Source: an uncultured Bdellovibrionales bacterium
Lineage (GTDB): Bacteria; Bdellovibrionota; UBA1018; CAIPTA01
DNA length: 64,000 bases
Assembly (NCBI GenBank): GCA_964612065.1
Contig: CAZTCD010000001.1
Coordinates: 7,013 to 71,012, forward strand
Reading direction: 5' to 3'
Every line of letters starts with the position of its first letter. The stretch's first letter is position 1. Below the pieces are notes generated by a model, which was not told the DNA's origin, ran no database searches, and saw only the letters and a program-made list of their open reading frames with translations. A program made the translations under genes and the position numbers. Shown piece after piece: positions 19,983 through 26,323 of this stretch.

Positions 19983-21176
19983 TTGCTACACCCATTTCAC
20001 GCAGCATTTTATTCGGCTAGAAATCGGCAACAGCTTGCTCAACTTGTAGTTTCAGATCTAGATACAACCGAGCATCTCTGGGGGGGGCGAGATTCGAGCA
20101 AGTCATTTCGAAATGTTCTTGTTGGTGCAACTGAACACCGGGGCGAGATATGGCAGGCATGGATCAGTAGTGGAGAGGTAGATTTAGCGGATGATGATGG
20201 ATTTTATGTGCTCCATCAAAGTCAGCGATTGGAGGGGAGATTAATAGACAGGTGGGCCCTGTACGGAGCTATAGGTGTTGAAGACCAGGGATTGTTTATC
20301 CATGAGGACGTGTTGCCGGAGGGCGTGGAGCGGGCCAGGCAAGGAACTGAAGCCTGCGAGAGTGACTTGGCGCCAATTTTTGTCGGGTGCGAGGAAAGCA
20401 AGGGGCTTTTGCTCCGAGAGCTTCTCTCGTCCTATTGTCGGGAAAGGAAACCTTTTCTAAGATTCGAGACATTGGAACAAGGGGCACACACGGTTTGGGT
20501 GATGGATGGTGCAGAGGCAGTTCGTCAGGCAAAGGAACTCTTCGCTGGGACGCCACTTTTCTTGTTGGATGGCCATCATCGTCTCGCCGCAGCCAGGGAA
20601 AACTTTCGTCTGGGCATGGGGGATGGGCGTATCCTGGCCTGTGTGTGTTCCATGGCTCCTTCGGATACGTTGATCCTGCCAATTCATCGTGCTGTAAACT
20701 ATGAGAGATGGATGCTTCCAGACGCGCTTTTTGCTGATTTGGTGAGGTCGGGCTGTAAGCTGACTGAGTTAGACTCTTTGCGCGTGTCCGGAATAGCGGA
20801 CTATTTGAATGGGCATCACTCGAGCGGCCCGTATTGTATAGTGCAGCACTCTCATTCGACGAAACCCACCTTGGTGGAGTTGCCTGCGGTTTTATCTCTG
20901 CCAGAACAGCTGGCAGACCTTTCGGTGGCGGCTTTAGACACCGGAGTTTTGGGTGAGCACCTTCAAGCTACCGTAATGCCCGTGCCAAGTGTGGATATGG
21001 CTCTGCAGCAGCTGGCACTGGATCAGGCTCAGGCTGCATTTTTTCTTCCAGCCAGTAGCCCTGCTCAAGTTCGATCAGTAGCACTTGGAAAGCTTCGGAT
21101 GCCGAGGAAAAGTACTAGGTTCGTTCCGAAACCTGCTTTGGGGCTTCTTTGCCGTCCGTGGACCTCGACTGGATAA
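19983..21176 (+). CDS. DUF1015 family protein
   Basis: The family N-terminus (.PF.a..Y) is present as MLHPFHAAFYS. The signature DGHHR motif appears in FLLDGHHRLAAAREN. A TTG start lies 4 nt after a GAGG. Confidence 0.6.
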   Translation: MLHPFHAAFYSARNRQQLAQLVVSDLDTTEHLWGGRDSSKSFRNVLVGATEHRGEIWQAWISSGEVDLADDDGFYVLHQSQRLEGRLIDRWALYGAIGVEDQGLFIHEDVLPEGVERARQGTEACESDLAPIFVGCEESKGLLLRELLSSYCRERKPFLRFETLEQGAHTVWVMDGAEAVRQAKELFAGTPLFLLDGHHRLAAARENFRLGMGDGRILACVCSMAPSDTLILPIHRAVNYERWMLPDALFADLVRSGCKLTELDSLRVSGIADYLNGHHSSGPYCIVQHSHSTKPTLVELPAVLSLPEQLADLSVAALDTGVLGEHLQATVMPVPSVDMALQQLALDQAQAAFFLPASSPAQVRSVALGKLRMPRKSTRFVPKPALGLLCRPWTSTG

Positions 21177-21210: not shown

Positions 21211-21531
21211 TCAACTTCGCCCTAAGCGAAAGTAAATTTCGCGGATCAGATTTTTTCCAATCGCTTCATTTAGTTTTCTCTGGATTAGGTGGCGCTTCGA
21301 AGTAAGCTCCGTGGTCCAGATGGGGTGTTTGGTTTCGACGAATAAAATGCCGTTTTTGAAGCTAACAGGCACTGCTTGTCTGGAAACGTCGTTTCCCACA
21401 GCTTTTGGCCATGCTCCAAATACCGCGGTTTCATCTCCAAGCTGTTTGGGCATTTTTTCCGAAAAGAACCCCTTAAGAAGGTCACCGATTTTTGTTGGCT
21501 GAAGATTTTTTCTCGGAGGTTTCATAGCCAT
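21211..21531 (-). CDS. DUF721/DciA-like protein
   Basis: The pattern AWPKAVGNDVSRQAVPVSFKNGILFVETKHPIWTTELTSKRHLIQRKLNEAIG matches the DUF721 (DciA) domain. This is a small basic protein. Confidence 0.5.
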   Translation of the reverse strand: MAMKPPRKNLQPTKIGDLLKGFFSEKMPKQLGDETAVFGAWPKAVGNDVSRQAVPVSFKNGILFVETKHPIWTTELTSKRHLIQRKLNEAIGKNLIREIYFRLGRS

Positions 21532-21569
21532 GCATTTTTGTACCAATCAACCTATGGTATAGACAAGGC

Positions 21570-23166: not shown

Positions 23167-23210
23167 AAAAAACGAAACCGCCGGCATATTGCCGGCGGTT
23201 TGCTTATTTC
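23167..23210. terminator. bidirectional intrinsic terminator between holA (+) and rpsT (-)
   Basis: An 11-bp perfect stem AAACCGCCGGC/GCCGGCGGTTT (23175-23185 and 23191-23201) has an ATATT loop. It is flanked by an A6 tract upstream and a T-rich tract downstream. Confidence 0.7.
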
Positions 23211-23233: not shown

Positions 23234-23515
23234 CTACTTCGAAGCAGCGGTACCCGAAATGGCTTTATTCCGGGCGCGGTGGATTCTCGACATCTTGCGC
23301 GCGGCACGTCCCTTTGGAATAGTTCCTTTTTGGGCGGCTTTGGCCAATGCGGACACTGCTTTGGAAACTGCTTCGGCAGCGGCCTTGGCGTCCGTCTTAA
23401 TGGCATCCATAGCCTTGGACGCTACCGTTTTCACGGTGGCACGACCAGCGCTACGGCGGGCATGACGTTTGATGTTTTGGCGGTTGCGCTTCTCAGCGGA
23501 TTTTACATTAGCCAT
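23234..23515 (-). CDS. rpsT: 30S ribosomal protein S20
   Basis: MANVKSAEKRNRQNIKRHARRS... is the canonical S20 sequence. A GAGGAG Shine-Dalgarno sits 6 nt upstream. Confidence 0.95.
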   Translation of the reverse strand: MANVKSAEKRNRQNIKRHARRSAGRATVKTVASKAMDAIKTDAKAAAEAVSKAVSALAKAAQKGTIPKGRAARKMSRIHRARNKAISGTAASK

Positions 23516-23518
23516 TTC

Positions 23519-23983
23519 TTACTCCTCGTCAAAGTTCGAAGAGGAAGGAGACCATGGATCATCATCTTCGTCTTCGTCAGTGTCATTCTCGTTATACTCT
23601 TCCCAGCTTTCCGTTTCTTCGTCCTGGTCAACGTCTCGGTCTTCATCCAGACCCATATCGCGATTCTTCTCTTGATACTGCTGGGCTTTGAAAAGAGACG
23701 CACCAGCAACGCCCACGCCAAGGCCAGTAGCGGCGGAGGCGATGCTCTTCAGGTTATCGGTCTTGGATGCTTTCTTGGGAGCTGCGGCTTTCTTAGGGGC
23801 AGCTTTTTTGGTCGCTTTCTTAGCGGTTTTTTTAGGGGCAGCTTTTTTGGTCGCTTTCTTAGCGGCTTTCTTAGCGGTCTTTTTCACAGGCTTCTTGGCT
23901 TTCTTAGCGGTCTTTTTCGTCGCCTTTTTTGCGGCCTTCTTTGCGGTTTTCTTGGCAGCTTTCTGGGCTTTTTTCTTGGCCAT
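23519..23983 (-). CDS. Lys/Ala-repeat histone-H1-like protein with a central hydrophobic segment and an acidic C-terminal tail
   Basis: An AGGAGA Shine-Dalgarno lies 6 nt before the ATG. The N-terminal roughly 90 aa consist of AKK(A/T)AKK repeats. The central segment is LKSIASAATGLGVGVAGASLF. The C-terminus is a D/E-rich tail with two Trp (EETESWEEYNENDTDEDEDDDPWSPSSSNFDEE). The gene ends 4 nt before the rpsT start. Confidence 0.6.
   Translation of the reverse strand: MAKKKAQKAAKKTAKKAAKKATKKTAKKAKKPVKKTAKKAAKKATKKAAPKKTAKKATKKAAPKKAAAPKKASKTDNLKSIASAATGLGVGVAGASLFKAQQYQEKNRDMGLDEDRDVDQDEETESWEEYNENDTDEDEDDDPWSPSSSNFDEE
23793..23870. repeat. two tandem near-identical 39-nt direct repeats inside the H1-like gene, with further degenerate copies to about 23950
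   Basis: TTAGGGGCAGCTTTTTTGGTCGCTTTCTTAGCGG(T/C)TTT occurs at 23793-23831 and 23832-23870. CTTAGCGGTCTTTTT recurs at 23869 and 23910. Confidence 0.8.
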
Positions 23984-24070
23984 GGGCTCTCCTAACAGTC
24001 CTGAAATAGAGTTGAAAGATGAGTGAAATCGCCCCTAGTCTTCCCATGGGATAGGCCAATTTACAAGGGG

Positions 24071-26323
24071 CTAATGCCGCACTTTACCTAGGTCATCCTG
24101 GATACGGCCAGCGCCTCCACCGGCATCAAATCGAGAGAAAGGATTGCTCCAGTTGGTGTCGGGGCTCACGGGGTCATTCGTGCCAGTGCCACCAGCGGCC
24201 AAAGACCGAAATGAGATGAAACGCACAGAGTAACCGGAGCGTCCGATATCCGGACCCAGCTCAGAATTCATAGGGATATTACCAGGGGGTTGCAGATCCT
24301 GGTCTCTGGCCGTTTTCTGGTTGTTCCAGGAGGTAAGCTGGCGTCTCTGGGCGTTCGGGGTTGCGGCAACCGTATAACGCTGCCCAAAGGCCTTCACGTA
24401 TCCTAATAGGTCCCTTTCGTCGTTGAGGAGGGGGTCGGGAATATAGTGGTTTACCACCTGATTTTGGCTCTCCAGGTAGCCAAATAGAATGGCCCATTTG
24501 GCATCGCTCATTACGCCGTTAAGGAAGGATCCGAACTTTCCTTCCAGAGTGCCGGCGTCGGCTGGGCCCCCGTTCAGGTACTCTGCTACCCGCAGGCGAA
24601 GAAAGCCCAAGCCAGCATTGGAGTTTACGGGGAAGAGAGGGGCGGCGAGGGTGAAAAATTTGCCCTCATAAACGGGGTTATCCTCAAAGAGGCCGATCTG
24701 CTCAGGTTCATTATAGTTGGCAGGAACCGTGTAATATCCGACTTCCCAGGGTGCATAAGCCCCTGAGAGCCGAGGTCCTAAATCGAGGCGATCTAGAGAG
24801 CGCATGGCTCCATTGATGTAGCCCAGGTGGGCATTGGTGGTAAATCCGCCAGCCTGGGAGTCCGAGTCGGTGTTGGACACAAGTGGATTGGGAAACCGGG
24901 CCGAAGTTAGGGTGTTTAGAATTTCCCCCTGGGTAGTTTTGCCCAGTGCGATCATTTGATGAAATTCGGTTTCGTCATCGTGGGAGAGATCTTTGCCAAT
25001 ACGGGAACCAAAGGGTTTGGCAGCTGAGTAGGCCGAGAGGGTTACGATTCCGTTGCCGCCAAAAGGAGAAAACAGAAGCCGAGCCTTTGCCTGAAGACGC
25101 ACAGCATAGTAGGTCACCAGCCCTGGATACTTCGACACGCCAAAGGGGAAATGAGGAATAACCCTGTTTTCTCGGTACTGAAAACAGTCTCCGCGGTCCA
25201 ATTGGCCTCGAGTTTCGAACTTGGAGTTGGCCACTGTTACTCTCGCGAACTGATCTTTGAACTTCACGAGGACCGGCGGGTTCTGGATAAATCGGTTGTC
25301 AAAACCGGCCCCTGTACTTGGAGCGCCGGGCTGGCTGGGAATGAGTTCGGTCATTTCAATATTTGCGAAGATCCCGTTGTCTCCCCCGATTCCAGGAAGA
25401 TTGTTTTTTGCACTGAGGTAGGCCTGAATCGGGCGTTCATAGTAGTCGAGAGTTTTTCCGCCCCCTTGTGCTGCGTTTCTCAGGGCTCCCATCGTTTCTT
25501 CTGTAACGGTGATCGATCCTACGCCTTCATTTGCGAGATTTAGATTTAAGGCTTCTTCATAGTTGTCGATTCGGGCTCTAAGAATGGCTTGTCGGGGCAA
25601 AACACCTACACGCTCAAGGCCATTTGTGAAAGGAAATGGATCTTCCGTATCACGTCCGATAGTGAGCATGGCGTCAGCCCCTTGAATCGGGCTCAAATTG
25701 AACAGCCAGGAAATCAGGAACTGCTGGTTGATTTCGGTTCTGCCTAGGCAGTCCGCGATTTTCTTTTCGATGATTTGGTTGGTTGCCGAACGAACCGCGG
25801 CCACAATAGGATCTGCCACACCCCAGGATCCGCCGCCCTGAAACTCAGGAATCCCGGGAACTCCATTTTTTTGACAGTAGTTGTTGGTAGCTTCGAAGAT
25901 TTTGCACACGGATGGCAAAAATGGCCCGCCAGTTTCGTTGGTATTTTCCCTTGGATCAACAAACGCGAAGTCATGCCGGTCGTCCCCAGGGTGCTGAACG
26001 CACATAGGAATTCGGCGCCCTGTGAAATCGAAGGGGAAGCAGGGCATGGCTTCGTAGTTCCCTCTAATGGTATAATAAAACATAAATTCTTTGAGTGCCC
26101 GGCGCATCTCCCAATTCAGGTATCCCACGGCCGTGAGCTGGCGGGCCTGAACGGCAGCTCCTGAATAGGAGGCGGCGTCGGCCGCATTCTGCAAATTGAT
26201 CTTTGCATGAACGAGCATGCCTACGTTCGTTGTGAACGCGAACATGATGATCATCGTAAATATAAACAGGGCCATGAACAGTGATGTCTGGCCGCGCTCA
26301 TCCCTGAGCCTTCTTATGCGCAT
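24071..26323 (-). CDS. large TadE/TadG-like (Flp-pilus pseudopilin N-domain) protein
   Basis: The N-terminal TM helix is SLFMALFIFTMIIMFAFTT. It is followed by NVGMLVHAKINLQNAADAASYSGA, matching the TadE/G-like LQnAADAAALAGA motif. The remaining roughly 680 aa are Gly/Asn/Pro-rich with no recognisable vWA MIDAS motif. Confidence 0.6.
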   Translation of the reverse strand: MRIRRLRDERGQTSLFMALFIFTMIIMFAFTTNVGMLVHAKINLQNAADAASYSGAAVQARQLTAVGYLNWEMRRALKEFMFYYTIRGNYEAMPCFPFDFTGRRIPMCVQHPGDDRHDFAFVDPRENTNETGGPFLPSVCKIFEATNNYCQKNGVPGIPEFQGGGSWGVADPIVAAVRSATNQIIEKKIADCLGRTEINQQFLISWLFNLSPIQGADAMLTIGRDTEDPFPFTNGLERVGVLPRQAILRARIDNYEEALNLNLANEGVGSITVTEETMGALRNAAQGGGKTLDYYERPIQAYLSAKNNLPGIGGDNGIFANIEMTELIPSQPGAPSTGAGFDNRFIQNPPVLVKFKDQFARVTVANSKFETRGQLDRGDCFQYRENRVIPHFPFGVSKYPGLVTYYAVRLQAKARLLFSPFGGNGIVTLSAYSAAKPFGSRIGKDLSHDDETEFHQMIALGKTTQGEILNTLTSARFPNPLVSNTDSDSQAGGFTTNAHLGYINGAMRSLDRLDLGPRLSGAYAPWEVGYYTVPANYNEPEQIGLFEDNPVYEGKFFTLAAPLFPVNSNAGLGFLRLRVAEYLNGGPADAGTLEGKFGSFLNGVMSDAKWAILFGYLESQNQVVNHYIPDPLLNDERDLLGYVKAFGQRYTVAATPNAQRRQLTSWNNQKTARDQDLQPPGNIPMNSELGPDIGRSGYSVRFISFRSLAAGGTGTNDPVSPDTNWSNPFSRFDAGGGAGRIQDDLGKVRH

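Follow-up and report, generated by a model that had tools for sequence, protein, structure and literature searches.

A putative basic/acidic protein of a new family encoded directly upstream of rpsT in uncultured Bdellovibrionota

The gene considered here occupies positions 23519–23983 of the minus strand in a 64-kb window, the whole stretch of DNA that was analyzed, from an uncultured Bdellovibrionales bacterium. The coding sequence, taken from the list of open reading frames (ORFs), starts with ATG, ends with a TAA stop codon at 23521–23519, and encodes a protein of 154 aa in which a basic block is followed by a Gly/Ala-rich segment and an acidic block. Retranslation of this interval returned exactly the sequence quoted in an earlier sequence-only reading of the window, and recalculation of the block boundaries upheld the three-module layout proposed there. 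When all ORFs in the 64-kb window were screened for a block with at least 40% basic residues and a block with at least 50% acidic residues, the gene at 23519–23983 was the only one recovered. Two long shadow ORFs are present on the opposite strand, at 23279–23995 (+, 238 aa) and 23688–24026 (+, 112 aa), and both are absent from the protein collection. Such frames, by-products of the repetitive codons, could mislead gene callers.

Based on composition and charge, the Lys/Ala-rich basic tail was assigned to residues 1–74 (23762–23983, minus strand), so that the basic block itself stands but not the length of 90 aa first given for it. The first 70 residues consist of 47% Lys and 33% Ala, and the charge ahead of the uncharged segment is +34 to +35. 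A portion of this tail is encoded by a 39-nt tandem repeat specifying a 13-aa unit, such as AKKATKKAAPKKT. The repeat was recovered by TRF with 2.3 copies and a 92% match, and its span was corrected from 23793–23870 to 23784–23874 (minus strand); the full copies at 23784–23822 and 23823–23861 are 95% identical. The Gly/Ala-rich hydrophobic segment, LKSIASAATGLGVGVAGASLF, comprises residues 78–98 and is therefore 21 aa long, not 22 as originally counted. Together with the conserved core that follows, it forms a motif kept across the family (residues 78–108, LKSIASAATGLGVGVAGASLFKAQQYQEKNR; 23660–23752, minus strand). The acidic part (residues 99–154) has a net charge of −21 and contains W127 and W144, in agreement with the acidic C-terminus with two Trp residues described previously. 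Within this part, the acidic tail proper (residues 109–154; 23522–23659, minus strand), with a charge of −21 after the SLF motif, harbors two conserved motifs: ESWEEY, which includes W127 (23594–23611, minus strand), and DPWSPSSSNFDEE, which includes W144 and F151 (23522–23560, minus strand).

Immediately downstream and on the same strand is rpsT (23234–23515), which encodes the 93-aa ribosomal protein S20 and was recognized by the Pfam model Ribosomal_S20p (PF01649, E=1.3e-15). The stop codon of the upstream gene (23521–23519) and the rpsT ATG (23515–23513) are separated by 3 nt (GAA), which corroborates the adjacency that was reported earlier while shortening the distance of 4 nt given with it. 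At all 16 loci at which a gene of this layout was found (see below), the spacer is 3, 5, 6, or 7 nt. In the window, the sequence GAGGAG formed by the last two Glu codons (23522–23527, minus strand) is the Shine-Dalgarno sequence of rpsT and is positioned 6 nt before its ATG. A GAGG is located 9–15 nt ahead of the rpsT ATG at 16/16 loci; it derives from the last two Glu codons at 15 of these and spans the stop codon at the remaining one, L002. The penultimate Glu codon is GAG at every one of the 16 loci, compared to 45 of the 219 Glu codons (21%) in the gene bodies, suggesting that the C-terminal Glu-Glu is doubly constrained. Dual coding is thus neatly illustrated here, the two C-terminal Glu codons also providing rpsT with its ribosome-binding site. 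A terminator scan identified none between the two genes, and the only one found lies after rpsT. This strong bidirectional intrinsic terminator (23175–23201), with a perfect 12-bp stem that includes 8 G-C pairs and with T-runs on both strands, serves the convergent rpsT, as the end of the two-gene unit, and holA. With a shared strand, a coupled stop and start, and no intervening terminator, the gene is, as read from the DNA, the first of a two-gene unit with rpsT, for which a shared message is predicted. The tight link to rpsT that had been suspected from the window therefore extends to the relatives. Fusion of the two proteins was not observed among 80 S20 relatives, which range from 58 to 109 aa, with 77 of them at 87–94 aa.

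The gene is preceded by an intergenic region of 87 nt (23984–24070, minus strand), which was aligned for 11 loci. Conserved elements are a TTGTAA (24066–24061) and the block CCATGGGAAGACTAGGGGC (24049–24031), common to 10 of the 11 loci, and the conserved order is TTGTAA, CCATGGGAAGACTAGGGGC, and TTAGGAGAG. The Shine-Dalgarno sequence of the gene itself, AGGAGAG (23993–23987, minus strand), precedes the ATG by 3 nt, and TTAGGAGA occurs at this site in 10/11 aligned relatives, which bears out the strong ribosome-binding site noted at the outset. In L002, the most divergent member, the aligned upstream place reads TTGTAG-17 nt-TATAAG, suggesting that this region is probably a promoter. The interval 23984–24070 is annotated as probably comprising a promoter or operator followed by a short leader. 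A sigma-70-like −10 hexamer was not found in the upstream block of the window (24031–24066); a promoter whose −10 element is unusual is one possible role for the block, and an operator, for instance in autoregulation by S20, is another. An RNA leader was also considered as a candidate and rejected, as neither an Rfam match nor a consensus structure (−0.17 kcal/mol) was obtained. Inside the gene, a single sigma-70-like site with a 9/12 match is present at 23586–23558, compared to 0.5 expected by chance.

Members of the family were collected from protein searches, from DNA-level scans of genomes and metagenomes, and from the neighbors of the Tad-like gene and of S20 relatives. A gene of the same layout was found at 16 loci, all in uncultured Bdellovibrionota/Oligoflexia, which are related to the predatory Bdellovibrio; 14 of these are complete (132–157 aa) and two are interrupted by the end of a contig. 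The named records are metagenome-assembled genomes labeled Bdellovibrionales, Bdellovibrionota, or Oligoflexia, and every member known so far is of metagenome origin. At each locus with sufficient flanking DNA, the gene is situated between the Tad-like gene (739–783 aa) and rpsT, within the wider order infB-rbfA-truB-Tad-X-rpsT, where X denotes the gene studied here, followed by the convergent holA-lptE and then by dciA and a DUF1015 gene. In the window, the Tad-like gene (24071–26323, minus strand) encodes a protein of 750 aa between truB and the X-rpsT pair; Pfam recognizes only an N-terminal TadE/G-like segment of it (E=6.7e-10), leaving a large C-terminal part without a match, and the gene is kept at that place in all long loci. 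The genes for DciA (21211–21546, minus strand) and for a DUF1015 protein (19983–21176, plus strand) flank lptE-holA, in an order also kept in all long loci; DciA is the helicase-loader type of bacteria that do not have DnaC or DnaI. One freshwater metagenome project (PRJNA261364) contains two distinct members of 145 aa and 140 aa (L003, L004, L020–L022), indicating that at least two lineages of the clade co-occur there.

Three further S20 relatives with 57–63% S20 identity were picked for their long contigs, and the gene was present in 3/3, suggesting that it is probably universal within this clade and that counts from protein databases understate the family. A homology search with the whole protein returned five matches of which two are true members, with AKK-rich proteins swamping the rest. 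A profile of the C-terminal half returned two matches in an indexed search and five in an exhaustive search of 1.84 billion representatives. Clustering at 50% identity probably merges proteins of this family with unrelated AKK-rich ones. The exact product of the window is absent from a collection of 15 billion proteins that does include the Tad-like protein, S20, HolA, and TruB encoded on the same 103-kb NCBI contig, and the gene was apparently left uncalled in the deposited record. Low-complexity genes of this type can escape both gene callers and clustered protein databases. Searches of a literature library returned no account of the protein.

Within the C-terminal half, pairwise comparisons yielded pN values of 0.02–0.33 and pS values of 0.23–0.97, the latter reaching saturation. 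For pairs with unsaturated synonymous divergence, dN/dS was 0.03–0.43 and below 0.25 in most pairs, the pattern expected of a sequence under purifying selection. No full-length homology to a characterized family was found and no frameshift was seen in the relatives; findings of this type had been named in the sequence-only reading as grounds for giving up its interpretation. Judged by its conservation, the ORF is a genuine gene that defines a protein family without a name, known to date only from a single uncultured clade.

The two charged blocks differ in the manner in which they are conserved. The core conforms to AG[VL]AGASLFKA[EQ][EQ][YF]QEKNR across the family, and the acidic tail contains ESWEE[YF] and DPW[SAT]PxKFDEE(E), in which W127, W144, and F151 are invariant alignment columns. 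Each of 14 members has exactly two Trp residues and a charge of −17 to −23 after the SLF motif. The basic tail shows no conservation of register and is instead encoded by lineage-specific tandem DNA repeats with periods of 24–75 nt and up to 100% identity; repeat units were detected in 10/10 members examined. The start of the uncharged core varies accordingly from residue 60 to residue 89, while the basic block retains a charge of +29 to +36 in the 14 members despite the varying length of the tail. In five members, the first 70 residues comprise 43–47% Lys and 23–37% Ala. Comparison of relatives agrees with the suggestion that the tail is built from repeats and changes in length: in the close pair L007/L012, the C-terminal part is identical at 62/66 positions without gaps and the N-terminal part has seven gap columns, and a protein of 140 aa, compared to 154 aa in the window, is encoded by relatives that share at least 90% Tad identity with the window. 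The charge-segregation index kappa is 0.41–0.46, compared to 0.15 for shuffled sequences. That both Trp motifs are so strictly conserved suggests a role for the acidic tail beyond balancing the charge of the basic tail, and it implies that these motifs have a specific partner.

The protein is predicted to be intrinsically disordered. AlphaFold2 gave a pLDDT of 64.9 for the window protein from the single sequence and of 51.5 with an alignment of five sequences, with no fold either way; the basic tail was modeled as a helix only from the single sequence and was disordered once the alignment was supplied. At E<=0.1, the only Pfam matches of the window protein were DUF4553 (0.016) and SseC (0.094), both far under the cut-offs, and no Pfam family was matched at E<=0.01 by the 10 members scanned. 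NCBIfam gave weak compositional matches only, the best scoring 19.6 bits where the cut-off is 711, and none was to a ribosomal protein or ribosome factor. The C-terminal-half profile found no PDB chain at E<=1. As to histone-like families, there was no match to the Pfam Linker_histone model and no folded winged-helix domain in the AlphaFold2 models, and the Pfam profiles for Hc1 and HC2 were unmatched by the window protein (E<=0.1) and by the 10 members (E<=0.01). Membership in the Hc1, Hc2, and linker-histone families was therefore rejected, and of the initial description as H1/Hc1/AlgP-like the composition holds and the family assignment does not. What remains is a resemblance in kind. Bacterial low-complexity DNA binders with H1-like tails constitute a kind and not a homologous family, and the tail described here has their features, with a length of at least 40 residues, about 40% Lys or more, an Ala/Pro-rich composition, and repeats of the AKKA/PKK type.

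Given these features, the explanation that we prefer, tentatively and at somewhat less than an even chance, is that the protein is an abundant, disordered, non-specific binder of nucleic acid, probably DNA, of the bacterial H1-like kind, whose acidic tail competes in cis. The basic Lys/Ala tail (about +30) would bind DNA, or any polyanion, non-specifically through its charge and would help to neutralize the nucleoid and make it more compact. The acidic tail (about −20) would fold back onto the basic tail in cis and compete with the polyanion, tempering binding and speeding exchange as does the acidic tail of HMGB1, and it may also offer its two Trp motifs (ESWEEY and DPWxPxKFDEE) to a partner. 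The short conserved Gly/Ala-rich core, which ends in SLFKAEEYQEKNR, would join the two arms. The location of the rpsT ribosome-binding site within the last two Glu codons suggests joint, high-level synthesis of the two proteins. That the protein binds DNA, inhibits itself in cis, and is abundant is what we infer. In favor of the H1-like reading are the architecture and motifs kept at 16 loci and the block charges that are held while the length of the tail varies, along with the excess of pS over pN in the C-terminal half, the segregation of charge, the absence of a predicted fold, and the operon-like layout with rpsT. Lys/Ala composition and PKK/AKKA units have been described for the DNA binders Hc2, AlgP, and DdbA (PMC2848022, PMC9239181, PMC3643593), and DNA-binding proteins that are self-inhibited by acidic disordered regions are known (PMC10250230). 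What appears to be new is the attached acidic tail, with about two-thirds of the opposite charge and two conserved aromatic motifs. A nucleoid-protein gene beside ribosomal genes has precedent, since the Escherichia coli genes for IHF, ihfB and ihfA, are directly downstream of rpsA and pheST. No homology was found that would favor DNA over rRNA, polyphosphate, or another polyanion as the ligand of the basic tail, and rpsT as the only conserved functional neighbor would point equally to the ribosome.

A ribosome-linked role is the strongest rival because rpsT is the sole invariant functional neighbor, and we regard it as unlikely, if deserving of serious consideration. The protein would then be a factor associated with the ribosome or rRNA, such as a lineage-specific ribosomal or biogenesis protein or an escort of S20, with the basic tail on rRNA and the acidic Trp motifs retaining the very basic S20, or a different ribosomal protein, up to the point of assembly. 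Such a role is consistent with adjacency and translational coupling to rpsT at 16/16 loci, with the rpsT Shine-Dalgarno sequence within the last codons of the gene, and with the neighborhood infB-rbfA-truB-(Tad-like)-X-rpsT. It is also consistent with the presence of the gene in 3/3 additional S20 relatives, the lowest at 57% S20 identity, and with a spacer of 3 or 6 nt at 14/16 loci, which places rpsT in the same frame. Against it, fusions are absent among the 80 S20 relatives (77 have 87–94 aa, with a maximum of 109 aa), and the S20 proteins of the clade are ordinary in length and sequence. The length and repeats of the tail also vary freely among close relatives, which would be unusual for a part fitted to the ribosome, and neither a curated ribosomal or ribosome-factor profile in NCBIfam nor a PDB chain was matched. 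Moreover, we know of no dedicated escorts of ribosomal proteins in bacteria.

The Gly/Ala-rich segment had been suggested to be a transmembrane or amphipathic helix, an idea that the relatives do not sustain. In the corresponding rival explanation, the product would be a single-pass inner-membrane protein tethering DNA or ribosomes, its basic tail cytoplasmic and its acidic tail periplasmic. The window protein and three relatives do have an uncharged stretch of 19 residues with a mean Kyte-Doolittle value of 1.3–1.6, and the charge layout is consistent with the positive-inside rule. However, the stretch is only 12 residues long in 6 of the 14 members and 15–17 in four more, and the summed Hessa free energy is positive in each of the 10 members tested (+1.6 to +4.5 kcal/mol), which argues that a membrane span is not a feature of the family. 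For 10 members, the best mean hydropathy over 19 residues is 0.83–1.62. The segment is composed of Gly, Ala, and Ser and not of Leu, Ile, and Val, there is no signal peptide, and the hydrophobic moment of the segment is at most 0.30, providing no amphipathic signal. We therefore consider membrane insertion improbable.

Binding to polyphosphate, a granule, or another polyanion, as in AlgP and with the Gly/Ala segment mediating self-association, is judged very improbable. H1-like tails bind polyphosphate besides DNA, and AlgP is found on polyphosphate granules (PMC9239181); a kappa of about 0.45 also favors coacervation with polyanions. Nevertheless, ppk, phasin, and granule genes are absent nearby, the conserved neighbor is rpsT, and nothing in the sequence separates polyphosphate from DNA as the ligand.

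A more elaborate proposal, and a long shot, is that a linker-histone-like arm and an acidic, aromatic arm resembling a histone chaperone are combined in one chain as a partner to bacterial histone chromatin, with the Trp motifs docking a histone-fold protein or S20 and with the charge-segregated chain driving a reversible nucleoid condensation tied to ribosome synthesis as the predator switches between attack and growth. Attack-phase cells of Bdellovibrionota are very small yet contain a large genome, and the use of histone-fold proteins in this group came as a surprise. Histone chromatin was recently found in this phylum (PMC10627809). A tblastn search of about 150 kb for a histone-fold gene, with an unverified Bd0055 query, gave no match, a result that is no evidence of absence. 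A further abundant partner of chromatin or the ribosome, restricted to a single uncultured branch, would add to the picture of histone-bearing Bdellovibrionota.

The weakest rival, a non-functional low-complexity open frame produced by repeats, could account for the long shadow ORFs and for the absence of the exact product from the 15-billion-protein collection that holds its contig neighbors, but it appears already contradicted by the position, length class, and C-terminal motifs kept at 16 loci, the low dN/dS where synonymous divergence is unsaturated, the conserved Shine-Dalgarno sequence and ATG, and the calling of the gene in several other assemblies, and its probability is close to negligible.

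Taken as a putative nucleic-acid binder of the H1-like kind, the protein can be compared with several known systems. The chlamydial proteins Hc1 (HctA) and Hc2 (HctB) are likewise small bacterial proteins with Lys/Ala-rich repetitive segments. The repeats of Hc2 arise from intragenic DNA repeats of variable number, giving proteins of 165–237 aa (PMC2848022), and the tail described here similarly derives from lineage-specific tandem repeats and varies in length. As with the hosts of Hc1 and Hc2, the host group has a two-phase life style with a compacted nucleoid (PMC11318664). Unlike the family described here, Hc1 and Hc2 do not have an acidic tail with Trp motifs, a Gly/Ala-rich core, or a linkage to rpsT, and no sequence homology between them and the family was detected with the Pfam profiles. 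A Lys/Ala(/Pro) tail joined to a second module is also found in AlgP of Pseudomonas, DdbA of Streptomyces, and HupB and HBHA of mycobacteria, where the second module provides the specific function (PMC9239181, PMC3643593, PMC10665949). In those proteins the second module is folded or known (DksA-like, HU, or coiled coil), whereas here it is disordered and acidic with short motifs; the basic tail is N-terminal in the present family, and homology was not detected.

Comparable in the proposed mechanism are binders with D/E tails of the HMGB1 type and the pair of H1 and prothymosin-alpha, in which a basic nucleic-acid-binding part is likewise matched by an acidic disordered part of comparable charge. 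In these eukaryotic systems, the acidic part acts as a competitor of DNA and accelerates exchange (PMC10250230). Here, both charged parts belong to a single chain of about 150 aa that has a kappa of about 0.45, whereas HMGB1 and H1-prothymosin-alpha are eukaryotic and HMGB1 contacts DNA through folded HMG boxes. The resemblance would be one of mechanism and not of ancestry. With a putative DNA-binding basic arm and an acidic arm that would oppose it, both carried by the same disordered chain, the protein would offer a compact natural case and a convenient model for self-inhibition and coacervation. The same layout is also seen in a second family (P0003/P0005, 138–152 aa; L017:53-511, L018:17-475, and L019:890-1306), with an AKK-type N-terminal tail, a Gly/Ala hydrophobic stretch, and an acidic tail ending in DDEGYF. 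These genes are not beside rpsT and instead neighbor a FadL-like gene or a flagellin gene, and homology of their C-terminal half to that of the rpsT-linked family was rejected (hhalign probability 4.8%). The occurrence of the same layout in a non-homologous family and in other genomic contexts suggests that the three-block design of a basic tail, a Gly/Ala-rich segment, and an acidic tail is recurrent.
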